From Candidatus Thorarchaeota archaeon (GTDB taxonomy: Archaea; Asgardarchaeota; Thorarchaeia; Thorarchaeales; Thorarchaeaceae): DNA of 36,057 nucleotides. The DNA lies in assembly GCA_029858305.1 (NCBI GenBank), contig JAOUFI010000019.1, forward strand, positions 1 to 36,057. Reading direction: 5' to 3'. Of the stretch, positions 19,709 to 36,057 are shown one piece after another. Positions within the stretch are counted from its first letter, which is position 1; every line of letters starts with the position of its first letter. The position numbers and the translations under genes were made by a program. The notes beneath the pieces are model-generated. The model made no database searches. It saw nothing but the letters and a program-made list of their open reading frames with translations, and was not told the DNA's origin.

Positions 19709-21850
19709 TCATAACGAATATCGGTGCCTGTCAAGGAACTCCTGCTTCTTTGCAGGATTATATGACGAGAGCGCTTGCAAATAGCCTGTTATTCTGCTGA
19801 ACACCTCGACTCCCACAAATCCGCACTTCGGACAGGGGATTTTTGAGAGGTCATCAATAGACGCAAACCTTGCACTCCGCCAATCAATACCACTCTGATA
19901 GTTGCAGTTCGGGCACTGTAAAACATCCTTTGTGAAGCTCCAATATGAGTTCAGAGTCTCTGTAGCAATCTTCTTTGTCAGCTCCCAAAGCGCATCAGGA
20001 TCTGGATTTGATTCACCAAGGTAGACATGAGTGAGAGCACCTCCATCCATGTACGGATGGAACATCCCTTCCTTCTTGATCCGTTGTGTCAGAGGAAGTT
20101 TCGCACCTACGTAGAGGGTCGTGCTGTTGGTATAGTAGACATTGGAACCATCACCCTTGAGATATTTCCTGATTCCAGGATACGCCTTGTAGTCCTTCAC
20201 CGCAAGACGACCTGCTGCGCTCTCAGCTGGAGTACGAGTGACACCAAAGTGGAGACCGGTCTCTTTCTGGAACTCTGCGGCTTTCGCTTTCAGGTGCTTG
20301 AGGACTTTGATTCCGAAACGTGTTCCCTCTGGTTCATGTAGATGGTGGCCAGTTATAACTTCAGCCATCTCGTCAAAACCAACCGTGCCCAACAGGAACT
20401 CACGTCGATTCATATCGATGAGAGGCTCACCATTTGGCTTGGGCTGTGTATAGAAAGGAACACTCCCGCTAGCAATCAGCTTGTCCATCAGCCGCTTCTT
20501 CTCAAGGATGACTTGTTTTGATAGTTCGACGTACTCGTCTATCTTCTCAAAGAAATGTTCCTCATCAGCTCTGCCTAGCCACGCGGCACGACCGAAGTTT
20601 GGTGTGACCATCTGCGAGGCTCCAAAGACCATATTTCCACTCAGGAACTCATCAAGTTCCTCATCACTACTCGCAGTCCAGAGATGTGAACAACAACTAC
20701 TGCAACCAGCCTCTATCTTTGATCGCCAGTTCAAGTAGTTCTCGAAATAGGGAGAACCATGTTTTACAGTGAGCTCAGCGACAAGCCGCCATGACTCATC
20801 ATACTCAGGTCCCATGAACTCTTTCCGAAGCACGATGTTGGGCTTTGGAAAACCGAAGCCCTTGCCCTTCGCATCACCCTTAATCATGACTTCCATGAAG
20901 GCATTGAAGAACAACCGCGCTTCTTCCTCATAGTCGCCATATGTGACCTCGGAAACCTTACCGCCAGGAAGTATTGCTGGAATATTACGCATAATCTTAG
21001 GAATACCGGGAGTAAGGTCAACACTACTGAATATCACCTGACCACCGCGCGCTACATACTGTTGGGTCAAAGTGAAGATCAACTGCTGCGCAGCTTGTTT
21101 GATCTTATTGTATGGCAGCCCTTTCATGAAGGGAGCTAAGAATGTATTGAAGTAGAAATATCCCTGACCGCCTGCAAAGGAGCTCTGAGCAGCAGCCAGC
21201 CAGATAGCGGCATGGTTTACTGCAACAGAGAGGTGTTGTGCAGGACCTGCGGCACTTGAGTGCATGCCACCAAGCCCATCAGGTGCAATACCTAGCGTAA
21301 GGACCTGTCGCATATCCCATGTGGCACAATAATCACGCGTTGAAAAATACTCTCTATCTTTGATGTAGATATCGCCTTTCAAATGAGCATCTGCTAGATG
21401 AGATGGTATTGAGAGGTAGGTATGTTGTTCCATCACCTGGTCGTGAACAAGTTTTGCAATCGTCTCAGGATTTCGCATGAGATTCGCATTGGATGTATGA
21501 GCACCGGGGTTATTAATGAGCAGACCGAGGTCGTACATAGGAATTCCAACACGAGTATAGAGGATACGTTCTTTCTCAAATCCCAGCTCAGCAAGGACAC
21601 TGTTGCACATCTCTCGAATTAGAGGACCGGATAGGAATTTGATACCAGAGGCAACAAGTCTATCCATGACCTTGACTGCCACAAGATGAGCATCAGCATG
21701 CGCGAGGTTAGCTTCCAATACAAGACTTTCAATGATTTTACTAGCATCGAAGGTCTCCATAGTACTGCTGGTGGTTCTGACCTTTGGCATCTTTTTCTCT
21801 CTGATGCGAAGGTCATCTGCATCTGAAATAGTGCTTCGAATGTCAGTCAC
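19709..21850 (-). CDS. nrdD: Class III (anaerobic) ribonucleotide reductase with N-terminal ATP cone
   Basis: ATP cone (FDASKII...IREMCNSVL), AHLKGDIYIKD, GGQ, FPKP, SCC finger loop, TPAES, YYTNS, CPNC/CPKC Zn site and glycyl-radical motif SRITGY. Confidence 0.95.
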   Translation of the reverse strand: MTDIRSTISDADDLRIREKKMPKVRTTSSTMETFDASKIIESLVLEANLAHADAHLVAVKVMDRLVASGIKFLSGPLIREMCNSVLAELGFEKERILYTRVGIPMYDLGLLINNPGAHTSNANLMRNPETIAKLVHDQVMEQHTYLSIPSHLADAHLKGDIYIKDREYFSTRDYCATWDMRQVLTLGIAPDGLGGMHSSAAGPAQHLSVAVNHAAIWLAAAQSSFAGGQGYFYFNTFLAPFMKGLPYNKIKQAAQQLIFTLTQQYVARGGQVIFSSVDLTPGIPKIMRNIPAILPGGKVSEVTYGDYEEEARLFFNAFMEVMIKGDAKGKGFGFPKPNIVLRKEFMGPEYDESWRLVAELTVKHGSPYFENYLNWRSKIEAGCSSCCSHLWTASSDEELDEFLSGNMVFGASQMVTPNFGRAAWLGRADEEHFFEKIDEYVELSKQVILEKKRLMDKLIASGSVPFYTQPKPNGEPLIDMNRREFLLGTVGFDEMAEVITGHHLHEPEGTRFGIKVLKHLKAKAAEFQKETGLHFGVTRTPAESAAGRLAVKDYKAYPGIRKYLKGDGSNVYYTNSTTLYVGAKLPLTQRIKKEGMFHPYMDGGALTHVYLGESNPDPDALWELTKKIATETLNSYWSFTKDVLQCPNCNYQSGIDWRSARFASIDDLSKIPCPKCGFVGVEVFSRITGYLQALSSYNPAKKQEFLDRHRYSL

Positions 21851-22155
21851 CGGAACTCACGTACCTCCCTTCTGATGGTTTCAATGTCAGGTATCTGACC
21901 ACTATAGAGCATCTTCATGTTGCCATTATTCTCAACAATAATCGATGGGGTGCTAGCTATGAAGATCTGATGTTCTAATAGAATGTACTCAAAATCCGAG
22001 TCCATTTCTCTTAGGTCTACTGTCTTAATCAAAACATCAGAATCGCAAAAAGCCTCGTTAATCACTGCTTTTGCCGCAGGACAATTGACACATCCGTCCT
22101 GAGTGAATAGATATAGAGTCGGCTTCGTAGCTAATCCTCCCGGCTGATGAATCAT
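21847..22155 (-). CDS. NrdH/thioredoxin-like redoxin coupled to nrdD
   Basis: LYLFTQDGCVNCP and STPSII; stop overlaps the nrdD start (GTGA 21850-21847); GGGAGGGAG precedes ATG 22155. Confidence 0.8.
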   Translation of the reverse strand: MIHQPGGLATKPTLYLFTQDGCVNCPAAKAVINEAFCDSDVLIKTVDLREMDSDFEYILLEHQIFIASTPSIIVENNGNMKMLYSGQIPDIETIRREVREFR

Positions 22156-22156
22156 A

Positions 22157-22270
22157 AACTCCCTCCCGGCATGAAGGGGCAAACTACTCTTAGTCCTATG
22201 AGAAATAAAAGCATTGTCACGGTCGGAATCGGCTTCTCGTCTAGCTCTAAGCCTTCGGAGAGAGGGAGTC
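22157..22270 (-). promoter_or_regulatory. Candidate structured 5' leader of the redoxin-nrdD operon
   Basis: Nested complementary segments, with GACUCCCUCUC pairing with the SD-containing GGGAGGGAGUU; TATA-like TTAATA about 40 nt upstream. Confidence 0.45.
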
Positions 22271-22552
22271 GTTCGCACATTATCCTAAGATTTCATTCCC
22301 TTGAGTACCTATTAAGGTCCTAGAGAACTAGAGTATGTTAGCACCGTTTAGAAGCATAGTTTTACTGTTCAAGGTCCTTCCAACTGAACAAGTATCTAGT
22401 AAAGGATACCAAAATATGATACAAATGAATATTCCATTTGGCGCGGAATATGAATGCTACTTGTGGGCTTGGAAGAGGGAGCGTCTTAAATGGAAAACCT
22501 AGAATAGGCATACCGCTTAGCATTCTTGTTGACTAGGCTCGGTGAAACTGAT

Positions 22553-24533: not shown

Positions 24534-26630
24534 TTGTCCCACCTCTATAAGAAGTTCGTTAAGGAACGAGTAGCAGCACTAGTAGCAGAAACAGAGCAGA
24601 TTAGAAACATCACTGTTATTGCTCATATTGATCACGGAAAGACCACGCTCACCGATTCTCTTATCGCAGATTCTGGATTACTCTCCAAGGAAGTTGCAGC
24701 ATCAGCAAGACTCCTTGATTACGACCAAATCGAGCAACAGAGAGGGATTACAATCAAGGCATCCGGAATCTCTCTCCTACATTCATTCAATGAGCGGGAG
24801 TATCTCATCAACCTAATTGATACACCAGGACACATTGATTTCTCAAGCCATGTAACACGAGGTCTCCGTTTAACGGATGGTGCCATTATAGTCGTTGATG
24901 CTATTGAAGGAATCATGGTCCAGACTGAAACTGTGACAAGGCAAGCAATGCAAGAGTTTGTGAAACCTGTATTGTTCATTAACAAAGTAGACAGGCTAAT
25001 GAGAGAAAGACGATTGAGCCCGAGAAAAACAGCCGAGGAAATCACACGCGTTGTCCGTGAATTCAATGCGATGTTGGGCAAGTATCTTGATGACGACCTC
25101 TTAGAAAAATGGGAGGTTTCCTTCAATAGAGGCTCATTGACCGTCGGTTCTGCATTGGACAAATGGGGAGTGGATATAGAAACTCTCAAGGCAAGAACAC
25201 ATGGTAGTGAAAAGAAAGTCGATCTTGGAAAAGCCTTCATAGAAATCCTCAAGGAAATTGATGAGATATATCGTGCAGAGAAACGCAAAGAGTTGATGGA
25301 TATCTTTCCAGTCGCACCAGTCGTTTTAAATTCTGTAATAAGAACTGTGCCAAATCCTTCCACCGCCCAGACGTATCGAGTACCGTTGTTCTGGAGAGGA
25401 GATTTGGAGTCAGAAACGGGTAGGTCTCTGCTCGAGTGCAATACAAAAGGAAGATGTGTCTGCCTTGTTGGTGATGTTCAACCAGATAGGCATGCAACTT
25501 CAGTTTCTGCAGTCAGAGTCTTTTCTGGTACACTTAGCAGAGCCGAACTATTGACTAATGTGAGAACAGGCAAACCAGCAAAGTCCCTTCAAATCGGACT
25601 CTTCATGTCCAAGACTCGAGTCGACCTTCCTACGATTCCTGCAGGGAATTTGGCCTTTATCACGGGATTAAAGGACATAGCCGTGGGGGACACATTGACT
25701 GGTGAAGGTAATGATCCTGTAGCACCTATGAGTGGACTTCAATATCCTATGGAGCCGGTTGTGACATATGCTGTCGAACCAAAGAAACTTTCAGAATTAA
25801 GTTCGATACAACAACCAATTGAAGAATACGTGAGATCAGACCCCGCATTGGAGTTTGAAGTCAACTCGGAAACTGGAGAGATGCTCCTCTCAGGTGCTGG
25901 AGAACTTCATGTCGAAATCACTATTGAGAAGATGGCGAGAACCGGCATCAATGTAACTCTAGGCACTCCAATGGTAATGCTCCGAGAGCAAATTACCAAG
26001 GATGGTGAAAGTCGAACCAGTGGAGGCCTAGATGTGAGTACATTTACTGTAATTGCCAAATTGCCTCAAACAGATACCTCCCCTGAGTCGTTGGGAGTAA
26101 TCGTTGATTCAGAGCCTAGTTCGAATTGCTGGCTTATCGACGCATCAGGGAAAATCAATCCATATGGTGAAGAAATTGAATGGGTGAAAGAAGGTTTCAG
26201 AACTCTAATTCGTAACGGTCCATTAAAAGGAGAGAAGATGCGAAAGCTATTGATTATCATCAAGAAGCTAGACTTAAAATTCACTGCACCAGAGGCTTCA
26301 TGGAGAGAAATTACTCAGCCTTTACTTCAAGCCTCAAGAGAGAGTGTGCTGAGTGGAAACCCGACCGTATTAGAACCATGGATTAGACTCGAGATCAGTG
26401 CACCTGAGGAGCATATTGGAAACCTTTCATCAATACTAGCTAAGAGAAAAGGTCACATTTTAGAAATCAATTCAGAGCGCACTCTTTACAGGATTGATGC
26501 AGAGATACCTGTAAGAGAATCGTTTGGTCTTGCTAATGAGATCCGTACATCGACTTCTGGGTGGGCAACATGGGGCGCTCGCTCTGGAGGTTTTAGAAGT
26601 TTAAAGAATCCAGATATTCGATACGACTAA
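24534..26630 (+). CDS. Divergent elongation factor 2 paralogue (aEF-2p-like)
   Basis: AHIDHGKTT, RGITI, DTPGH, NKVD, GSA, GELH and LEP..., ESFG...IR..TSG; no diphthamide HRG loop. Confidence 0.85.
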   Translation: MSHLYKKFVKERVAALVAETEQIRNITVIAHIDHGKTTLTDSLIADSGLLSKEVAASARLLDYDQIEQQRGITIKASGISLLHSFNEREYLINLIDTPGHIDFSSHVTRGLRLTDGAIIVVDAIEGIMVQTETVTRQAMQEFVKPVLFINKVDRLMRERRLSPRKTAEEITRVVREFNAMLGKYLDDDLLEKWEVSFNRGSLTVGSALDKWGVDIETLKARTHGSEKKVDLGKAFIEILKEIDEIYRAEKRKELMDIFPVAPVVLNSVIRTVPNPSTAQTYRVPLFWRGDLESETGRSLLECNTKGRCVCLVGDVQPDRHATSVSAVRVFSGTLSRAELLTNVRTGKPAKSLQIGLFMSKTRVDLPTIPAGNLAFITGLKDIAVGDTLTGEGNDPVAPMSGLQYPMEPVVTYAVEPKKLSELSSIQQPIEEYVRSDPALEFEVNSETGEMLLSGAGELHVEITIEKMARTGINVTLGTPMVMLREQITKDGESRTSGGLDVSTFTVIAKLPQTDTSPESLGVIVDSEPSSNCWLIDASGKINPYGEEIEWVKEGFRTLIRNGPLKGEKMRKLLIIIKKLDLKFTAPEASWREITQPLLQASRESVLSGNPTVLEPWIRLEISAPEEHIGNLSSILAKRKGHILEINSERTLYRIDAEIPVRESFGLANEIRTSTSGWATWGARSGGFRSLKNPDIRYD

Positions 26631-26639
26631 GCAGGTTCA

Positions 26640-28937
26640 TCACATACGAAGGTAAAAACGGCTATTCATCACAGCACCTATTGGAGCTATAACCCTGCGG
26701 TCAATAAGGGATACATTATCCATCATTTTCAGGGCTCGATTGATATTCGAAAAAACAGCATTCAGATATGGTTGTGCCTCGACCATCTCTGATTCTTCAA
26801 CCATCTGAAGATATGCATTGGCGATTTTGATCAATCCTAACCAGTCCTCAGATAGAATAAAGCTATATTGGTTTTCGTCAATAGCGGGTGGAGTTCCTGG
26901 GATTGTTGCTCTATCAATATATGCTGCATAGTGGTTTTCTAGGGTCAATGCAAATCTGCGAAGTACTTGCGACAATGAGGCGGAGGTTGCTTTGATGAAT
27001 TCAACCGATTCATCGAATTCAGGTTCAATGCGTAAAACTTCACCAAAGGCTACAGCAGCGCTGTATAATCCCGTCGCCATTTCAGAATAGTCTTTATTGG
27101 CAAAAAATGCTCTGATGGTCTGAATCAGATATGTTTCACCCAACCAGTATTGTGCGAGGAGAGGATCAACACGTTGAACTTCATCATCAACAGAAGGCTG
27201 AACCCGTCGTCCTAGCTCAATGTTCAAAGATTCAAGATTTAGCTTCGTTATGGATAAAGCCGCTGTAAGTTTTGCAACATCTGCTAGCGCATTATCAGAG
27301 TTGGCCATTCTCTTTGAACGTTCAAGAAGGGTTGGCCAAGATTTCTCAAGGAAAGGAACAAGTAGTGAAACGCTTTCAATGAACAGAGATTCTTGAGGTG
27401 CATCAATCAACATCCTATCAATATCTTCGAAGAGACGTTGTAGCCGTTGGGATATGTTACGACCATGTCGTGTGATTAGCCAAACAACATCATATGTTGC
27501 AATGGCAATTTCCTCGTAGGCTCGACGGTCTGTTGGAAAAAGAGGGATATATTGAACGAGTATATTTCGGATTGGCTCCAGAAAATCATCTGAATCAGAT
27601 CGATCTGAAATCCTCATCATGGAGAGTGCGAGACCAATTCGTGTTCCTAGAAGTTCAATATCGGAAACACTGCCCTTCTTCAAGAAATCTTCACGAATCT
27701 CTTCTGCCCATTTGAATGCCTTGATTCCCAAATCCCAGAATTCAGTAGATTCTGTAGATAAACTCAACCAACCAATCGTGTTTTCTACCTTTGCCTTTTC
27801 TAGTTCTACGTCAGGCATCTCATCATCTATCTCATCCAAAATACTTCTGGCTTGGGTTAATAGCTCAATCGCCTTGTTCATACTGTCATAGTCATTCATA
27901 AAACCATGAGCAAATCCGAGCCCACACAAGGTTTTGTACACATGAAATAATTGGATAGATGTCTTATTCTCTATACCCTCGTATATTTCAAGTCCAGACT
28001 CAAGACGCTCGATTGCCTCTGAAACACCCTCTCTCCAGCCATTAGCTAGGATACTTGATCCAATCACAAGATGTGCCAATCCAACTTCATCACGACTAAC
28101 CAGATCGGACTTCAAAGCAATATCATAAAGCTCTGCGGCTTTGTCCCCAATCTTTCGTGCAACTTTATACGATATTGAATCGTCGCGAGTTTCGTTCACT
28201 GCAAGTTGGAGAGTAACTTCAGCTAGTCTGAGAGCATCTTTGCTTGAACGTGCCTCTTTCTCTAGATTGTTGAGAATGTCGCGGGATTGGTCATACATTC
28301 CAAGTTCTGTCAATACACAGGCGTAATCAAAGGTTGCTTCGAAATGTAGTTCCTTCTGTCCGGCTTCTCTGGATATTTCTATCACTCGGTTGAGTAAGAG
28401 TTCAGCACCCTCAAAGAATCCAGCTTCAATCAAAATCCAAGCAAGATAATGAACCTCATGAAGCGCAAGTGTTGTTGTACCATCATGCCTTCGGTCGTAA
28501 ATTGCACCTAACGTTAGTGAAGCTTCATCGGTCAAGAAAGGTAGAACTGGCCGCAGATTGAGTCTAATTGTAGAGGTTATTGCTTGTGACAGTTCACCTA
28601 GAATGTCCACAAGTGTTGGGAGAGCCTCAATGTCGGGCAGGAGCTCGCATTCGGATCGTCTATTACTATTCGTGTATCTAGTATCAAGTAGTATTAGTGA
28701 TTCAGGTAGAGTTCGATTTTTCTTGAAGGATAGACGAACTGCTATCTCAGTCAGTTTTGCACTCGCTAGGCCAGGCCTTCTGAGAATAATTTCCTCAATC
28801 GCCCTTGCAATATCGAATAGAAGATTAGATTCCTCGCTGTCCCTAGCTGAAATGTTTTGAATCATTGAGAGACCATCATCGAGAGAGAGGGATGCACAGA
28901 GTATATCACGTAGTGCAGTCAATAGCAAGGATTCCAC
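26640..28937 (-). CDS. Large alpha-solenoid / TPR-like protein
   Basis: 765 aa, helical composition, repeated LG/LA...A...L..A patterns (e.g. LGMYDQSRDIL, KAIELLTQA). Confidence 0.65.
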   Translation of the reverse strand: MESLLLTALRDILCASLSLDDGLSMIQNISARDSEESNLLFDIARAIEEIILRRPGLASAKLTEIAVRLSFKKNRTLPESLILLDTRYTNSNRRSECELLPDIEALPTLVDILGELSQAITSTIRLNLRPVLPFLTDEASLTLGAIYDRRHDGTTTLALHEVHYLAWILIEAGFFEGAELLLNRVIEISREAGQKELHFEATFDYACVLTELGMYDQSRDILNNLEKEARSSKDALRLAEVTLQLAVNETRDDSISYKVARKIGDKAAELYDIALKSDLVSRDEVGLAHLVIGSSILANGWREGVSEAIERLESGLEIYEGIENKTSIQLFHVYKTLCGLGFAHGFMNDYDSMNKAIELLTQARSILDEIDDEMPDVELEKAKVENTIGWLSLSTESTEFWDLGIKAFKWAEEIREDFLKKGSVSDIELLGTRIGLALSMMRISDRSDSDDFLEPIRNILVQYIPLFPTDRRAYEEIAIATYDVVWLITRHGRNISQRLQRLFEDIDRMLIDAPQESLFIESVSLLVPFLEKSWPTLLERSKRMANSDNALADVAKLTAALSITKLNLESLNIELGRRVQPSVDDEVQRVDPLLAQYWLGETYLIQTIRAFFANKDYSEMATGLYSAAVAFGEVLRIEPEFDESVEFIKATSASLSQVLRRFALTLENHYAAYIDRATIPGTPPAIDENQYSFILSEDWLGLIKIANAYLQMVEESEMVEAQPYLNAVFSNINRALKMMDNVSLIDRRVIAPIGAVMNSRFYLRM

Positions 28938-28995
28938 TCTTCAAGCCTCTCTGTAAAGATGCGGTTTGATACTCCTTTAAAGCTTTCACAGCAAA

Positions 28996-29700
28996 CTATC
29001 GCTCAATAGTGAAGTCATGCCACTCCCGAGATGTTTCCGTCCCACGCATACGTTCCATACGTACTTGATGTTTAGGAATAGGTTCGATATCATTGATTCT
29101 AAAACGAAGTACTGCATCAGCAAGATAAGAAAATGTGGCATAGGTTTTTTCATCATGTACACCTTCTTCAAGCACATACATGATACTATGAGAGCTCTGT
29201 GTGATTCTTCCACTAAGTCGTTGAATTGCCTTTGGCATTGTTGCAGGATTTGAATGGAGAATCAAGGTGGAAAGACTATCAATGACGACACGAGCAACAA
29301 CTACATTTTCTAGAACCTCTGAGAGGACTATTCCTAGCTCGCTGATGTCATCAACTTTGGCAAGAGACCTTGCAGATCCTGTTTTTGGTGCGCCCATTCT
29401 CTCCGAGTAGCCATCTATGAATACAAACTGACCTGCTGCTTCTTGTGCCTCAGTTGCCCAGCCATGACGACTCATATCATTGCGAATGACTCTGGGAGAT
29501 ACATCGGTCGTGACAAATATAGCAGGAAATCCCTGATCAATACCCTCCGCAAGAAAAGCCTCTGCGTACGTAGTCTTACCTGCTCCTAGAGGGCCAACAA
29601 GCATGTAAGATACCTGAGTCAACTGTCCAAACTTAACAAGATCACTAATCATTGGATGTGCACGTGCAGGTTTTTGTGTTGAACTCTCTGAGCTATTCAA
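28996..29700 (-). CDS. KaiC/RAD55-like RecA-fold ATPase, CII-like, degenerate catalytic site
   Basis: Walker A GPLGAGKT, Walker B VVIDSLS, SYLAD and ERMRGT; TTD replaces the catalytic EE. Confidence 0.85.
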   Translation of the reverse strand: MNSSESSTQKPARAHPMISDLVKFGQLTQVSYMLVGPLGAGKTTYAEAFLAEGIDQGFPAIFVTTDVSPRVIRNDMSRHGWATEAQEAAGQFVFIDGYSERMGAPKTGSARSLAKVDDISELGIVLSEVLENVVVARVVIDSLSTLILHSNPATMPKAIQRLSGRITQSSHSIMYVLEEGVHDEKTYATFSYLADAVLRFRINDIEPIPKHQVRMERMRGTETSREWHDFTIER

Positions 29701-29719
29701 TTTGCCACATCCCAGTCAG

Positions 29720-30466
29720 CTAGCTTCCTGGACTTATTTCGCCAGGCCAGACTCTTATACCTTCGTCTGTAATTCGCATTGAGTGTATCCTCGAGCTGTG
29801 CTTTGATCCTCTGAGCTTTAAGACCTCAATTGAACGAGAACGTGATGTGTCTGAAATCTTTTCGTTATAGAGAACAATGACTCCTGAGGCTAGAAAAGCT
29901 TCGATATCGAACACACCTAAGCCTGTTTCTTGTGCTGGAATCTCACTTGTAATCAAAAGGGTGCAGCCTGTTCGTGTGATGTTTGCTGCAAGTCTAAAGA
30001 ACTCCTCCCGGAGGATATCTCGACTTCTAAACTTATAGGCCATGATTGAGAGGGTATCAAGCACGACACGAGTAGCATTGATTTTCTTGATATGATTCAT
30101 AATTATTGCCTGTAGACCAGATAGATCGAAACTGGGGTATTCCCCTATCGTGGCAGGTGTCGCCTCCTTTGAAGGAGAAAGATCAACGATGGAAATCTTG
30201 CCCTCCTTTTCGAGCTTTTCAAGATCCATCCCAAACCTTAGCATGTTTCTCTTTATCAGGATGGGAGATTCTTCTAGAGTCACAAACACTCCTGGTTCAT
30301 TATACTCTGTGACCCCCTTGTAGATGAACTGAGTTGCAAGGATGCTTTTGCCAGTACCAGCTTTCCCTGCGATGAGAATTGTATCGCCCTTTGGAAAACC
30401 GCCCTCAATCAACTCATCAAGGCCTGGAATACCAGTCTTTACTCGTTCTATTGTATAATCACTCAT
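29720..30466 (-). CDS. KaiC-like ATPase, CI-like
   Basis: TGIPGLD..IEGG.P, GKAGTGKS, EPGVFVTLEE, RVVLD and IEVLKLRGS. Confidence 0.9.
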   Translation of the reverse strand: MSDYTIERVKTGIPGLDELIEGGFPKGDTILIAGKAGTGKSILATQFIYKGVTEYNEPGVFVTLEESPILIKRNMLRFGMDLEKLEKEGKISIVDLSPSKEATPATIGEYPSFDLSGLQAIIMNHIKKINATRVVLDTLSIMAYKFRSRDILREEFFRLAANITRTGCTLLITSEIPAQETGLGVFDIEAFLASGVIVLYNEKISDTSRSRSIEVLKLRGSKHSSRIHSMRITDEGIRVWPGEISPGS

Positions 30467-30795
30467 CAGGATTCACCCTTCTTCTTGGTCATGACCTTGG
30501 CCCCGAGTACCATCTTCATCAACATCTCTGGCTCCGGGATTCCAGTGATAGAGACTCCGCCAATCATAACTGTGGGTAGGGCAAATATACCATACTCCTC
30601 AGCAGCCTCTGGATTCTCACTTACATTGATTATTACAAGCTTGAATGTATCAAGCCCAAAGTCATTAATCGTTTCTCGAATCACTTCTTCAGCCCTTGGA
30701 CAAAACGCGCATGAATCAGATTTGAAGAACACAACCTCAATCATATTGGAATCATCCGCCTCTGACTCGGTTGGTTCAGTCTTCAAATCGCGCAC
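30466..30795 (-). CDS. Thioredoxin-fold protein with KaiB-like segment, coupled to the KaiC gene
   Basis: CAFC and INVSENPEAAEEYGIFALPT; TGATG stop/start overlap at 30468-30464; exact start uncertain. Confidence 0.8.
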   Translation of the reverse strand: MRDLKTEPTESEADDSNMIEVVFFKSDSCAFCPRAEEVIRETINDFGLDTFKLVIINVSENPEAAEEYGIFALPTVMIGGVSITGIPEPEMLMKMVLGAKVMTKKKGES

Positions 30796-30886
30796 TCCTA
30801 GGATGAAGAAACGGTACCATCAAGTAACGTGGAAATCACTTGAATGTTTTGAGAGCGTGTAATACGCATTTGAAAAAGCCATTTCT

Positions 30887-31270
30887 TCACTTATAGCCCA
30901 TAAGGATACGAATTCTTGTAGTAGCTTTTCCGATTGCTCGGGCATGGTAACGGATATTCTTCGGCACCAGAGCTCCGATAATCAATGTCTCATCGCCTCG
31001 TGCTCCTACACGTTTGAATACGGCTTTTCCATCTTGGCAGCGAAGACTGATATCCCTAATTTCACCTAGCATCAGTTCTTTCCGCACACGCTCAGCAACA
31101 TCAGCAATCATTCCACACATAGCTGCAACGATATCTTGATTGGTCTTAGGAGATGTGGCGGATGAGACTAGCAGACCATTTCCTCTTGCAAGAACAGAAG
31201 CTGAATAATTGCCTTCTTTATTCATGGTCTCTAGAATCTTTGGAAGTTCGCGATAATCTGGCCGTTCCAT
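30887..31270 (-). CDS. Roadblock/LC7 (MglB-like) protein
   Basis: SVLARGNGLLVSS...IVAAM...AERVRKELMLGEI pattern; 127 aa. Confidence 0.85.
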   Translation of the reverse strand: MERPDYRELPKILETMNKEGNYSASVLARGNGLLVSSATSPKTNQDIVAAMCGMIADVAERVRKELMLGEIRDISLRCQDGKAVFKRVGARGDETLIIGALVPKNIRYHARAIGKATTRIRILMGYK

Positions 31271-31405
31271 ATGGACACACCATCTATCCTTGGAGTACTT
31301 GTCGCATTGTGTGTTTGCCTATTAAATAGTTTGAGACTATCTATATTTCCACAGTAGAGATTTAAATGTCCATGAACCCTCTTCTTGAATGTGGAGTTGA
31401 GCTGT

Positions 31406-31954
31406 ATGTCTACAGATTACCGTTTCAAAATTGTCATGTTAGGAGACGGTGCAGTAGGCAAGACAGCCATGACTGCTAGGTTCACCCAAGACTATTTTGA
31501 AGCAGACTACAAGAGAACCATTGGCACTGATTTCTCTGTCAAGCGAATGAACATTCCTGAAATTGAGGCTCACGTCACGCTGCAAATATGGGATCTCGCA
31601 GGTCAACCCAGGTTTGAGTTTGTGCGACAAGGATTCTATAGAGGCTCTAGAGGAGGTCTCCTATTATACGACGTGACCAGACGAAGAACCTTCATCAACG
31701 CGGAAGCTTGGAAGGATGAGGCCTTCAAGAATCTGAAGGGTGAGATACCTCTTGTTTTGGTAGCTAACAAGGTGGATCTCACTGACAGTAGAGCTGTAAC
31801 AACCGAAGAAGGCGAGGAATTCGCCAAAAAGAATGGATTCCTGTACGTCGAGTCGAGTGCTCTCACAGGTGAAAATGTAGAACAAGCCTACATTGAGTTA
31901 TGTAAAATCATGATTGAAGAGGGAAAAACGAAATCTAGTGGACCAATAATATAG
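31406..31954 (+). CDS. Rab-like small GTPase
   Basis: GDGAVGKT, TIGTDF, QIWDLAGQ, FYRG, NKVD and ESSA; no C-terminal Cys; start ATG 31406. Confidence 0.93.
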   Translation: MSTDYRFKIVMLGDGAVGKTAMTARFTQDYFEADYKRTIGTDFSVKRMNIPEIEAHVTLQIWDLAGQPRFEFVRQGFYRGSRGGLLLYDVTRRRTFINAEAWKDEAFKNLKGEIPLVLVANKVDLTDSRAVTTEEGEEFAKKNGFLYVESSALTGENVEQAYIELCKIMIEEGKTKSSGPII

Positions 31955-31961
31955 CCACAGT

Positions 31962-33092
31962 TCATTGGCGCGTGTTTCCTTTTAACAGTCCCAGAGCTCG
32001 CTTGCATTGCCAGACAACATAGAACATACGTTTTGTCTGTAGTGTTTCCTCATCATATTGTGCATAGAGTGCTTCGTATTTCTGAATGAACTCATCTCTG
32101 CGATTCGGATCGTTTGTTGATTCTATCTCCTTCAATAATAACTGAAATGGCTCAAGCATTTCATTCATATCCTCTACTTCCCACCGAATGATGGCTCCAG
32201 TGCCATCAGCAGTAAGGAAAGCATTACGAGATGGATACCATTCTATCCCATCAATCTCGCCCATTGTGGATGCTTCACCCTGAACTGTCTGGGTAGCAAC
32301 ATCCCAAAGATAGATTGTCCTATCACCAGACCCTGATGCGAGATAGCGCCCATCACTACTGAACCCCAATGAACGAACTTCGCTCTCATGACGTTGAAGT
32401 GTTTGTTCTAATTTCATTGGTTTGAATGTTGCATTCCATAATAGCATTGTCAAATCCGACGAACCAGACACAAGGCGGGATCCATCAGGATTGAAGCGCA
32501 CCTCTCTGACCGCAGCCCTATGGTCATCATGACGAGCAATCATCGCCCCAGTTTCTGCATTCCATTCGCAGATGTTTGCATCTACAGAGCCAGATACGAT
32601 ACGACTACCTTGCGGATCCCAATCAACTGTGACAACATAGAATCCATGACCCTTCATCTGACGAATCAATGAGCGATTTTCAACATCCCAGATAATGAGA
32701 GTTGTATCCCCACTTCCTGATACAAGCTTATTCCCATCAGGGGAGAACGAGAGAGACAATACAGGGTATGTATGTCCTTCTAGTATCCCAATACATTCGC
32801 CTGAACGTATATCCCAGAGCTTCACTAATCTCTCAACTGTTCCAGAGGCAACAATATCGCCTCTCGGACTGAACGCAAGAGAGGTGCTGAGAAAATCATC
32901 CTGCATCCGTTGCATCTCTGTGCAGTCATCAGCTGCATAAAGTCGAATACTTCGGTCTTGAAGAGCTGCTGCAAACATACGACCTACACGATTCATTGCA
33001 AAACGACGTGTTATCTCAGAGCCATGTTCTGCCTGTGGCTTGAGGATTGTAGGCTTCAAAAAGATGCTTAGCTCGTCATGCTCCATTGACAT
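31962..33092 (-). CDS. WD40 beta-propeller protein with short helical C-terminus
   Basis: About 7 repeats with GH...FSPDG..LVSGS.D..WD consensus; start taken at ATG 33092. Confidence 0.92.
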   Translation of the reverse strand: MSMEHDELSIFLKPTILKPQAEHGSEITRRFAMNRVGRMFAAALQDRSIRLYAADDCTEMQRMQDDFLSTSLAFSPRGDIVASGTVERLVKLWDIRSGECIGILEGHTYPVLSLSFSPDGNKLVSGSGDTTLIIWDVENRSLIRQMKGHGFYVVTVDWDPQGSRIVSGSVDANICEWNAETGAMIARHDDHRAAVREVRFNPDGSRLVSGSSDLTMLLWNATFKPMKLEQTLQRHESEVRSLGFSSDGRYLASGSGDRTIYLWDVATQTVQGEASTMGEIDGIEWYPSRNAFLTADGTGAIIRWEVEDMNEMLEPFQLLLKEIESTNDPNRRDEFIQKYEALYAQYDEETLQTKRMFYVVWQCKRALGLLKGNTRQ

Positions 33093-33308
33093 CACGCGCG
33101 GCGTAATCAAAGGCCCGTAAATATGTTGTGAAAGAGAATCTGAGGAATATTCAAGATAGTAGATTATCATGTCTACCTGTTTCAAAATTATATTTCAATA
33201 ATGATTTGCTAGGAAAATTGAATGAGCACATTTCAATTCTCAAAAAAAGGGAACTCCATCATACTTATTTTATTGAAAGGATTGCAATTGCGCAGAGGAA
33301 ACAATGTA

Positions 33309-35574: not shown

Positions 35575-36057
35575 CTATGTGAGTCCGCCTGCTTCAAGGA
35601 TTTTGATTGCTAACTCTAGGAAAGCAGCCTCAACATTTATTCCTGTCTTTGCACTTGTTTCAAGAAATGATGTAATGACACCTTGATTCGCAATCTTTTC
35701 TGCGAGTTTCTGTCCTTCCTCAGTGGTCACAATGGTCTGAGCCATCACAGGATTGTCTTTGAATTGATCCCTTAGGTCTATCTTATTGGCGATTAGAACA
35801 ATAGGTATCTTCTTACCAGCATTTGTCCAGCATTCATCCACCCAGTTCATGAGATTGTCAAAAGACCCACGTTCAACTGTAGAATAAACTGCTAGCGCAC
35901 CCTGTGCGCCTCTATAGAAAGTGGAACGTACACTCTTGAAGTGTTCCTGGCCTGCGAGATCCCAAATCTGAATGCTAACATCATGACCACCCTCAAGTTG
36001 CATCTTCTTGACAGCAAAATCAGCACCGATAGTGATCATGTAGTTGGCTCGGAAACC
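35575..36057 (-). CDS. Rab-like small GTPase, 5' end beyond the window
   Basis: Frame open to the window end (GFRANYMITIGADF); QIWDLAGQE, FYRGA, NKID and ETSAK. Confidence 0.92.
   Translation of the reverse strand, partial: GFRANYMITIGADFAVKKMQLEGGHDVSIQIWDLAGQEHFKSVRSTFYRGAQGALAVYSTVERGSFDNLMNWVDECWTNAGKKIPIVLIANKIDLRDQFKDNPVMAQTIVTTEEGQKLAEKIANQGVITSFLETSAKTGINVEAAFLELAIKILEAGGLT

Follow-up and report, generated by a model that had tools for sequence, protein, structure and literature searches.

A conserved Thorarchaeota gene cluster linking a thioredoxin with a CI-like KaiC-family ATPase, next to a Roadblock protein and a Rab-like GTPase

KaiB and SasA's thioredoxin-like domain dock, in similar orientation, on the exposed B-loop in KaiC's CI domain, and mutation of KaiC F122/D123 weakens both interactions, according to the portion of the preprint available to us (bioRxiv 10.1101/2020.06.17.158394). 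Partial accounts of the structural work add that KaiB contributes mainly its C-terminal half to the KaiC interface, and that the structures of KaiB- and SasA-bound KaiC-CI are PDB 5JWO and 6X61. In archaea, KaiC-like "signal transduction hub" modules with iKaiC (inactivated KaiC) domains were described by Makarova, Galperin and Koonin (2017), as cited in the available part of PMC5847659; KaiC-like ATPases are proposed hubs of archaeal signalling, with few partners known. Other described systems that come close are the MJ0307-family thioredoxins of methanogens (1fo5, 1nho; TIGR00411), the MglA/MglB and Rag/Ragulator pairs with the Asgard proteins Thor-Rab and Thor-RB (excerpts of PMC10933270), and the kaiC-kaiB-histidine kinase hourglass operon of Cereibacter sphaeroides. 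Here we describe a gene cluster of Candidatus Thorarchaeota archaeon (GCA_029858305.1, contig JAOUFI010000019.1, positions 1-36,057, forward strand), a 36,057-nt stretch that is called the window below and to which coordinates refer. Five co-oriented open reading frames (ORFs) on the minus strand encode, in this order, a Roadblock protein, a thioredoxin, two KaiC-family ATPases (ATPase 1 and ATPase 2) and a TPR-like protein of 765 amino acids (aa). Genome comparisons and one structural model lead us to favour, with moderate confidence, the view that the row forms a signalling operon found throughout the Thorarchaeota lineage, with a CI-like KaiC-family ATPase of one domain at its core. The features of the row are as follows.

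30887..31270, minus strand: Roadblock/LC7 protein, first in the row, 127 aa (Pfam PF03259)
30466..30795, minus strand: MJ0307-type thioredoxin, 109 aa from GTG 30795 (Pfam PF13192, TIGR00411, 1fo5)
30700..30711, minus strand: thioredoxin active site CxxC, C29-A-F-C32 (alignment and predicted interface)
30464..30468, minus strand: TGATG, thioredoxin stop and ATPase 1 start (read from the DNA)
29720..30466, minus strand: ATPase 1, complete single-domain CI-like KaiC-family ATPase, 248 aa (PF06745)
30095..30187, minus strand: B-loop-equivalent segment of ATPase 1, residues 94-124, including Y110-P-S-F113-D114-L-S-G-L118 (alignment with the CI insert)
28996..29700, minus strand: ATPase 2, divergent KaiC-family paralogue, 234 aa from TTG 29700 (PF06745)
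26640..28937, minus strand: TPR-like alpha-solenoid, final gene of the row, 765 aa (AlphaFold2 model and fold search)

An earlier note on this DNA had described five co-oriented genes with the thioredoxin coupled to the first ATPase by TGATG, and both are present in the ORF list and the DNA: the thioredoxin stop TGA and the ATPase 1 start ATG have one base in common (...tcctgatgagt..., 30464-30468). The strings on which that note rested its comparisons were found in the translations as well, namely EPGVFVTLEE, IEAFLASGVIVL and EVLKLRGS in ATPase 1, LVIINVSENPEAAEEYGIFALPT and CAFC in the thioredoxin, and TFSYLADAV and ERMRGT in ATPase 2, where TTDVSP replaces the TLEESP of ATPase 1 and the EE pair is gone, as the note had said. 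Intergenic gaps are 91 nt between the Roadblock and thioredoxin genes and 58 nt upstream of the TPR gene. Two starts are uncertain: the thioredoxin may begin at GTG 30795 (109 aa) or at ATG 30744 (92 aa), and ATPase 2 at TTG 29700 or at ATG 29652, the latter being used by many database entries.

Conservation of gene order was assessed in 43 Thorarchaeota loci (L036-L078) that carry a relative of ATPase 1 with at least 65% identity and whose titles name Thorarchaeota. The five-gene order was intact in 37 of them (36 by script, plus L054, in which ATPase 2 is in two pieces); of the other six, five were truncated at the end of a contig, and the last, which belongs to a different family within the order, truly lacks the TPR gene. 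The recurrence of the row in 37/43 loci is therefore more than chance. The thioredoxin and ATPase 1 genes were adjacent in 42/43 loci, and so were the genes for ATPase 1 and ATPase 2, the exceptions being contig-end cuts. Where both ORFs were called (41 loci, with starts picked by script), the thioredoxin and ATPase 1 frames overlapped in 35 (by 4 nt in 26 loci, 1 nt in six, 8 nt in two and 20 nt in one) and lay 0-9 nt apart in the remaining six. The earlier note had proposed a comparison of synteny across Asgard genomes, and within Thorarchaeota both the order and the tight thioredoxin-ATPase coupling proved to be conserved. Identity to the window proteins within Thorarchaeota was 75-95% for ATPase 1, the most conserved product, 46-86% for the thioredoxin and 41-81% for the TPR protein; L076, the sole locus from the second family of the order, has an ATPase 1 that is 65% identical.

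The association also survives in rearranged form. In the second family of the order (L022/L076), the Ras, Roadblock, thioredoxin, ATPase 1 and ATPase 2 genes lie on one strand without a TPR gene. In two genomes of Atabeyarchaeia, a CGFC thioredoxin gene ends 1 nt ahead of a KaiC-like gene whose product is 40% identical to ATPase 1, and this pair is followed by a gene for a Gtr1/RagA-like GTPase (64.5 bits), opposite a gene for a canonical TPR protein. Of the 80 loci fetched with the Atabeyarchaeia KaiC, only 2, both of them from Atabeyarchaeia, have this thioredoxin gene directly upstream; a Streptomyces match turned out to be a true KaiB, and in several DPANN loci ordinary glutaredoxin or thioredoxin genes are 1.8-2.7 kb distant. 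The linkage of thioredoxin, KaiC-like ATPase and small GTPase thus outlasts rearrangement, which is the usual comparative sign of a functional tie. The link between Roadblock and a small GTPase, also raised in the earlier note, is kept in three arrangements; the Atabeyarchaeia form has the Gtr1/RagA-like GTPase and no detectable Roadblock. A profile search across 400 of the phylum's genomes gave thioredoxin orthologue scores of at least 139 bits only in the two families of the Thorarchaeota order, 95 and 109 bits in the two Atabeyarchaeia genomes and at most 78 bits in everything else, indicating that the thioredoxin is a dedicated paralogue. A strong orthologue (E <1e-40) is present in 72 of the 86 genomes of the family; in several of the remaining 14, a contig ends at the locus.

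ATPase 1, judged by its sequence, is a complete, CI-like single-domain KaiC homologue. It matches PF06745 with 244.3 bits (cut-off 26.6) over positions 1-228 of 231. Against the halves of a solved KaiC it scores 187.5 bits for CI and 77.3 bits for CII, and the medians over 41 orthologues are 232.8 bits with the CI profile and 149.7 bits with the CII profile, which agrees with the CI-like character given to it in the earlier note. The Walker A motif is GKAGTGKS, the catalytic pair E65-E66 lies in a TLEE motif found in 42/42 sequences, and KLRGS is kept in 40/42. An insert in ATPase 1 aligns with the [FY]DLS[GA]L segment of eight bacterial CI halves, at a position where the CII halves of the same eight proteins have a gap; within this B-loop, P111, F113, L115 and L118 are invariant. 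The only Cys of the protein is kept in 57% of sequences. ATPase 1 was considered as a circadian KaiC proper and rejected, being a 248-aa single domain and not a tandem of CI and CII: its scores with the circadian KaiC models PRK09302 and TIGR02655 (212.1 vs 408 and 167.2 vs 546.25) are under the equivalog cut-offs and cover model positions 9-240 of 515. The genome has two clear KaiC-family genes and three weaker matches of 20.9-33.7 bits.

The thioredoxin matches Thioredoxin_3 (PF13192) with 36.8 bits (cut-off 24.8) and thioredoxin (PF00085) with 25.9 bits (cut-off 23.5). Its best PDB match is the MJ0307 thioredoxin 1fo5 (2.3e-13), glutaredoxin-like and protein disulfide oxidoreductase (PDO) proteins come next, and KaiB is absent among the best 60 of its 147 PDB matches. 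Because TIGR00411 gives 54.8 bits, under the equivalog cut-off of 92.75, the protein is on sequence grounds a relative, not an equivalog, of the MJ0307 family. It is closest to that family in sequence and has the same minimal fold and active-site layout, whereas its C-A-F-C motif, its tails (an acidic, variable N-terminal one and a basic C-terminal one) and its constant coupling to a KaiC-like gene set it apart. C29 and C32 are kept in 42/42 aligned thioredoxins, with the motif C-[AVIP]-F-C-P, and in the cis-Pro loop A-L-P-T the proline is kept in 42/42 and P-T in 41/42. The model of the protein (mean pLDDT 77.2) has the minimal beta-alpha-beta-alpha-beta-beta-alpha fold, with strands at residues 19-25, 51-57, 75-78 and 81-84 and helices at 32-46, 62-68 and 89-108. 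The genome's sole stronger Thioredoxin_3 match is a two-domain PDO-like protein elsewhere.

The earlier note had called this protein a KaiB-like thioredoxin. Ranks 1-49 of a fold search with the model were thioredoxins, or chains or complexes containing a thioredoxin-type fold, and the fold-switch-stabilised KaiB 5jyt stood at rank 50 with a similar E-value; fold alone therefore cannot discriminate a thioredoxin from KaiB. With Pfam KaiB (PF07689), whose cut-off is 27 bits, the window protein reaches 24.3 bits and is matched at no more than profile positions 18-55 of 82. It is nonetheless the genome's only PF07689 match at E <=1, all 30 of 30 aligned members of its family match this profile at E <=0.01 (best 8.3e-7), and hhalign aligns the family with six plasmid-borne KaiBs with a probability of 95.8% over 61 columns. 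The thioredoxin family and KaiB are thus remotely but detectably homologous. True KaiBs, in contrast, score 58.6-91.4 bits over PF07689 positions 2-77/81 and have no thioredoxin-family match, and the six aligned KaiBs have A-G-x-T-P-K and no cysteines at the CxxC site, where the window protein and all 41 orthologues have C-x-F-C. As a control, a two-domain PDO-like protein of another Asgard genome (G075, L138:82-690, minus strand) scored 36.7 bits with PF07689, above the cut-off of 27, over only 32 residues and on the same short stretch as the window protein, probably as a false positive on the segment "VIDL..NPEL...Y.I..VPT"; it outscores the window thioredoxin. By these controls the resemblance is not confined to partners of KaiC. 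No PF07689 match was obtained with three CPYC thioredoxins from a different Asgard family, and among 14 control genomes there were sub-threshold matches in ten and a match above the cut-off in one. The identification as KaiB was rejected on the sub-cut-off score, the partial coverage, the retained CxxC and the higher-scoring PDO-like control. What stands of the earlier description is a real, local resemblance to KaiB, and what falls is membership of that family.

A separate observation concerns an actinomycete, on a Streptomyces sp. contig (L215:3534-4693) of which a true KaiB is encoded (75.6 bits); 156 nt downstream of it begins a match to the KaiC family (233 bits; first 231 residues of the ATPase). 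In eight further loci, mostly of Iainarchaeia (L226, L193, L191, L249, L246, L245, L229 and L250), a thioredoxin-fold ORF lies 1.8-2.8 kb upstream of a KaiC-like gene on the same strand; the two that were scanned with Pfam were one glutaredoxin and one thioredoxin, and the arrangement could represent lineage synteny or a looser link. A KaiC-like paralogue that is 37-40% identical to ATPase 1 has one in-frame TAG in four genomes of the genus (G016:C205:55192-55902, G023:C37:34346-35056, G008:C344:8750-9460 and G024:C247:71801-72514) and a TGA in a fifth (G006:C61:6697-7413). This recurrent stop could mean recoding, two adjoining genes or a common pseudogene.

Complex modelling had also been proposed in the earlier note, and we modelled ATPase 1 with the thioredoxin, each as a 30-row alignment, in three runs with three controls. 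The complex score was 0.75 in the three runs, and the best of the three controls reached 0.01; the score mark was reached by 58/80 solved complexes and 2/110 mismatched pairs, counts that are only a rough guide because custom alignments were used. The runs agreed in at least 96% of contacts, with a partner pLDDT of at least 77. On the ATPase 1 side the predicted interface comprises residues 94, 96, 100, 102-118, 120-121, 123-124 and 145-146, that is, the B-loop and the next helix; nearly all of it falls in the B-loop-equivalent segment. On the thioredoxin side it comprises residues 24-35, with residues 28-31 at the CxxC, and residues 58-95, spanning helix 2 and the cis-Pro loop as well as strands 3-4 and the beginning of helix 3. 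The closest predicted contacts join ATPase 1 residues 113-118 with thioredoxin residues 72-75, and F113-D114 align with the [FY]D of the CI B-loop. The model thus reproduces the docking mode of KaiB and SasA, which shows likeness, not binding. Here too, a small protein of beta-alpha-beta-alpha-beta-beta-alpha thioredoxin topology is encoded beside a CI-type KaiC domain, and the model puts it on that loop, the homologous F-D pair lying centrally and the contact being made mainly by its C-terminal half. There are also differences from the KaiB/SasA-KaiC system. In the window protein the CxxC and cis-Pro are invariant and the scores are those of a thioredoxin and not of KaiB, its predicted partner is a single-domain protein without a CII ring, and the locus has neither KaiA nor a SasA-type kinase domain.

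ATPase 2 belongs to the same family, with 103.2 bits for PF06745 (cut-off 26.6) and 43.1 bits for DUF7504, and the earlier note had taken the two ATPases for the CI and CII halves of a split KaiC. The second half of this claim did not hold. All 39 orthologues of ATPase 2 longer than 220 aa (of 42 collected) scored higher with the CI than with the CII profile (medians 67.6 vs 44.0 bits), PDB KaiCs match it in the CI stretch only, and among proteins of solved structure PH0284 is its best relative. Where all eight CII halves have a gap, at the position of the B-loop, ATPase 2 retains an insert of CI length. In a quick tree (SH-aLRT support only, midpoint root; the rows L031-L033 labelled "arc" are Thorarchaeota ATPase 1 orthologues), ATPase 2 forms a separate long branch (length 2.15), and the eight CII halves form a clade of their own (support 93). 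A fused near relative of ATPase 2 was not found: in a search among longer proteins, the best 120 matches listed were bacterial two-domain KaiCs with at most 44% identity. In another search, the best 120 of its 214 matches were at least 77% identical, with source names nearly all Thorarchaeota and the annotation "RAD55 family ATPase".

The motif counts for the row omit ATPase 2 sequences shorter than 225 aa (3/42), Roadblock sequences shorter than 120 aa (1/40) and Ras sequences shorter than 170 aa (1/37). On this basis ATPase 2 has the motif TTDVSP, with D66-V67 replacing the E-E pair, in 40/40 sequences, whereas CI, CII and ATPase 1 have E-E or E-D at these positions (E-E in 8/8 CII halves). 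In CII this pair serves autokinase and phosphatase activity. Walker A (GxxGxGKT) is kept in 40/40 and the arginine-finger motif RMRG[TS] in 38/40, and there is no conserved Cys. With the Glu pair lost and Walker A and the arginine finger kept, ATPase 2 therefore probably binds nucleotide but hydrolyses it poorly. One CII-like trait remains, in that S191 and Y192 (39/40 each) stand in the alignment columns of the CII phosphosite S-T/S-S; score, insert and tree all go against CII, and the assignment of ATPase 2 as a KaiC CII half was rejected on four of five features. The protein appears instead to fit the description of iKaiC, as a KaiC-family match with its Glu pair replaced. As in the archaeal hubs, an active KaiC-like ATPase of one domain is accompanied at the locus by a KaiC-family protein whose catalytic residues are degenerate, among predicted input and output proteins. 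The locus differs from the hubs in that the partners are a dedicated thioredoxin, a Roadblock protein, a Rab-like GTPase and a TPR solenoid, and from iKaiC in that ATPase 2 retains Walker A and the arginine finger and may still bind nucleotide, so that "inactivated" is deduced from the Glu pair. In L054 (6844-7540), ATPase 2 is matched as two fragments that overlap, with either a change of frame or a break, which suggests a frameshift or an assembly error in this metagenome-assembled genome.

The Roadblock protein at the head of the row scores 30.4 bits with PF03259 (cut-off 23), and its best PDB matches are Roadblock/LC7 proteins (4.3e-5). It lies directly upstream of the thioredoxin gene in 41/43 Thorarchaeota loci, and its Cys78 is kept in 97% of 40 aligned sequences. 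Beyond it lie two further conserved genes.

31385..31954, plus strand: Rab-like small GTPase, divergently transcribed, Thor-Rab orthologue (Pfam Ras, PDB 7ezb)
31962..33185, minus strand: WD40 beta-propeller protein, past the GTPase (Pfam WD40, 5 repeats)

The GTPase scores 172.7 bits with Pfam Ras and matches PDB 7ezb, "Thorarchaeota Rab", with 306 bits (6e-91). The crystallised Thor-Rab was taken from contig LRSL01000056.1, according to the available text of PMC10933270, and this contig is our locus L045, which carries the whole cluster; by these matches the window GTPase is the orthologue of the crystallised protein. The words "KaiC" and "thioredoxin" occur 0 times each in the part of this structure paper (PMC10933270) available to us. 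The GTPase gene adjoins that of Roadblock in 37/43 loci (divergent in 36, on the same strand in one). This recalls MglA/MglB, Rag/Ragulator and the Asgard pair Thor-Rab and Thor-RB in that a Roadblock gene stands beside a Thor-Rab orthologue; the Roadblock protein here is only distantly like the crystallised ones (26.9 bits), and its regulation of the GTPase is putative. The WD40 protein (162.9 bits, 5 repeats) adjoins the GTPase in 32/43 loci.

At the other end of the row, the 765-aa protein gives only sub-threshold Pfam TPR matches. Its AlphaFold2 model is an all-helical hairpin solenoid (mean pLDDT 89.1), and the nearest folds are the TPR scaffolds Ctr9, Ski3, IFT-A and LGN, with a TM of only 0.2-0.34 on the query; an Atlas look-up and the fold search gave generic TPR leads only and no specific function. 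Its gene follows that of ATPase 2 in 39/43 loci and is absent in the related family (L022/L076). KaiA was not found, the sole match being one of 14.7 bits with two in-frame stops, which bears out the remark in the earlier note that no KaiA was visible.

Several neighbours were observed besides. A 698-aa EF-2/EF-G-like GTPase gene (24534-26630, plus strand) converges on the TPR gene; it occupies the same place in 36/43 loci and comes directly after ATPase 2 in the related family without the TPR gene. A second Ras-family GTPase gene (35575-36057, minus strand; 125 bits) lies 3.6 kb from the gene for the Thor-Rab orthologue and continues past the end of the window, and a gene whose product is about 43% identical to the Thor-Rab orthologue is in the same relative place in most related loci. 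The gene for the anaerobic ribonucleotide reductase NrdD (450 bits; 19709-22278, minus strand) is preceded by an overlapping 143-aa ORF with a weak Thioredoxin_3 match (18.4 bits), which may encode a redoxin or an activase partner.

In the reading that we favour, ATPase 1 would form an ATP-driven ring, like the solved archaeal and cyanobacterial KaiC domains. The thioredoxin, made in step with it, would dock on the B-loop (F113-D114) through its CxxC/cis-Pro groove and helix 2, at the site and in the orientation used on KaiC-CI by fold-switched KaiB and the SasA thioredoxin-like domain. Since neither ATPase has a conserved Cys, the thioredoxin, should it truly make this contact, would more probably act as a redox-sensitive ligand or an adaptor than as an ATPase reductase; it may signal its own redox state to the ATPase or bring a client. 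ATPase 2 could serve ATPase 1 as a partner or adaptor that does not hydrolyse ATP, with S191 as a possible phospho-acceptor, and the TPR solenoid may be a scaffold. Roadblock would couple the module to the adjoining Rab-like GTPase, in the manner of MglB/MglA or Ragulator/Rag. A bolder version, which we offer tentatively and consider rather doubtful, is that the Thorarchaeota/Atabeyarchaeia thioredoxin is a living example of the ancestral state of the KaiB/SasA domain, redox-active and gripping the KaiC B-loop by its substrate groove, with thiol redox gating a KaiC-type ring that, together with a dead paralogue and a TPR scaffold, sets a Roadblock/Rab switch.

A number of points weigh against the favoured reading. 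The 91-nt and 58-nt gaps leave room for separate promoters. In Atabeyarchaeia, the 152-aa protein encoded upstream of the thioredoxin has no Pfam match and no similarity to Roadblock (hhalign probability 0.07%), and in one genome (G012; L020/L051), the sole such genome of the genus, the WD40 gene directly adjoins that of Roadblock, the intervening GTPase gene being absent. Since complexes of KaiB-CI and SasA-CI are solved, the model may owe its high score to recall of a like complex, and the three controls include no ordinary thioredoxin paired with ATPase 1. The predicted contact surface is also the generic substrate groove of thioredoxins, and its conservation therefore does not single out the ATPase as the partner. 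Finally, a B-loop of the FD(L/I)S type is also present in Asgard KaiC-like genes without an adjoining thioredoxin.

A rival reading is that the thioredoxin is an ordinary disulfide reductase that binds neither ATPase and only shares its expression with KaiC-like ATPases of stress response or signalling, for instance within a regulon for oxidative stress. In its favour, the protein has the CxxC, the cis-Pro and the fold of a functional thioredoxin, it is most closely related to thioredoxins of the MJ0307 type and to protein disulfide oxidoreductases, and the complex score may reflect recall of the KaiB/SasA-CI structures. There is a precedent in Legionella, where a KaiC homologue raises oxidative-stress resistance without interacting with its KaiB homologue, as reported in the accessible part of PMC10671191. 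Yet co-expression by itself does not account well for a thioredoxin stop and an ATPase 1 start that overlap or lie within 9 nt in 41/41 loci, for the same pairing in a second Asgard class, for a paralogue confined at the highest scores to two families, or for a C-A-F-C dipeptide that is unusual and conserved, and we regard this explanation as unlikely.

An explanation that we find distinctly improbable is that the client of the thioredoxin is Roadblock (through its single, nearly invariant Cys78, for example by way of an intermolecular disulfide within a Roadblock dimer) or else the TPR protein, redox control then falling on the GTPase regulator. The conservation of Cys78, set against ATPases that have no conserved Cys, speaks for it, as does the position of the Roadblock gene directly upstream of the thioredoxin gene. 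Against it, the thioredoxin frame overlaps that of ATPase 1 and not that of Roadblock, and in Atabeyarchaeia thioredoxin and KaiC stay paired although no Roadblock is detectable.

It is very improbable that both ATPases are RadA-paralogue (aRadC/Rad55-like) recombination mediators and that the cluster serves DNA repair. Source names such as "RAD55 family ATPase" and "KaiC/GvpD/RAD55 family RecA-like ATPase" point that way, and ATPase 1 does match the Sulfolobus RadA paralogue SSO2452 (2w0m) with 61.9 bits, but its PDB matches to KaiC (220-265 bits) and to the single-domain Pyrococcus PH0186 (175 bits) are far higher. Moreover, the conserved neighbours encode a GTPase, Roadblock, WD40 and TPR proteins, with no repair genes among them, and ATPase 2 is without the catalytic glutamates.

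Hardly credible is a genuine Kai-type timer (hourglass or oscillator) with KaiC split into ATPase 1 as CI and ATPase 2 as CII and with a redox-active KaiB: the CI-like ATPase 1 with its B-loop, the S-Y pair of ATPase 2 and the thioredoxin modelled at the KaiB site are in its favour, but ATPase 2 is CI-like in score and insert, lacks the E-E needed by CII for phosphotransfer, falls outside the CII clade and has no fused relative that we found, the thioredoxin is under the KaiB cut-off, KaiA was not found, and KaiB occurred only alongside full-length KaiC in 11,264 genomes, as stated in the available part of PMC5520375. The Cereibacter sphaeroides operon resembles the cluster in its tightly linked thioredoxin-fold and KaiC-family genes and its signalling output gene; there, however, a two-domain KaiC goes with a full-length KaiB (91.4 bits), whereas here there are two single-domain genes, neither of them CII-like. 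The two ATPases of the locus are not the CI and CII of a divided KaiC, the thioredoxin does not belong to KaiB, and there is no sign of a clock. The module belongs to none of the clock families, because KaiB fails on score, coverage and CxxC, CII on four of five features and circadian KaiC on architecture. It is most like a KaiB/SasA-KaiC-CI pair placed inside an archaeal KaiC-like hub with an inactivated paralogue and joined to a Roadblock/Rab pair. Full-text literature searches combining KaiC-like or KaiB with archaea, Asgard, Thorarchaeota, thioredoxin or roadblock, which did not extend to Makarova et al. (2017), found no paper on this cluster.

The module offers a dedicated, redox-competent thioredoxin that is predicted to sit on the KaiB/SasA loop, in a putative operon that is almost universal in one Asgard order and lies beside a GTPase of solved structure. 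If binding fails, the cluster is a conserved but ordinary KaiC-like neighbourhood. If the proposal is true, it would provide a plausible ancestor-like state for KaiB, and control of a Roadblock/Rab switch in a close relative of eukaryotes.

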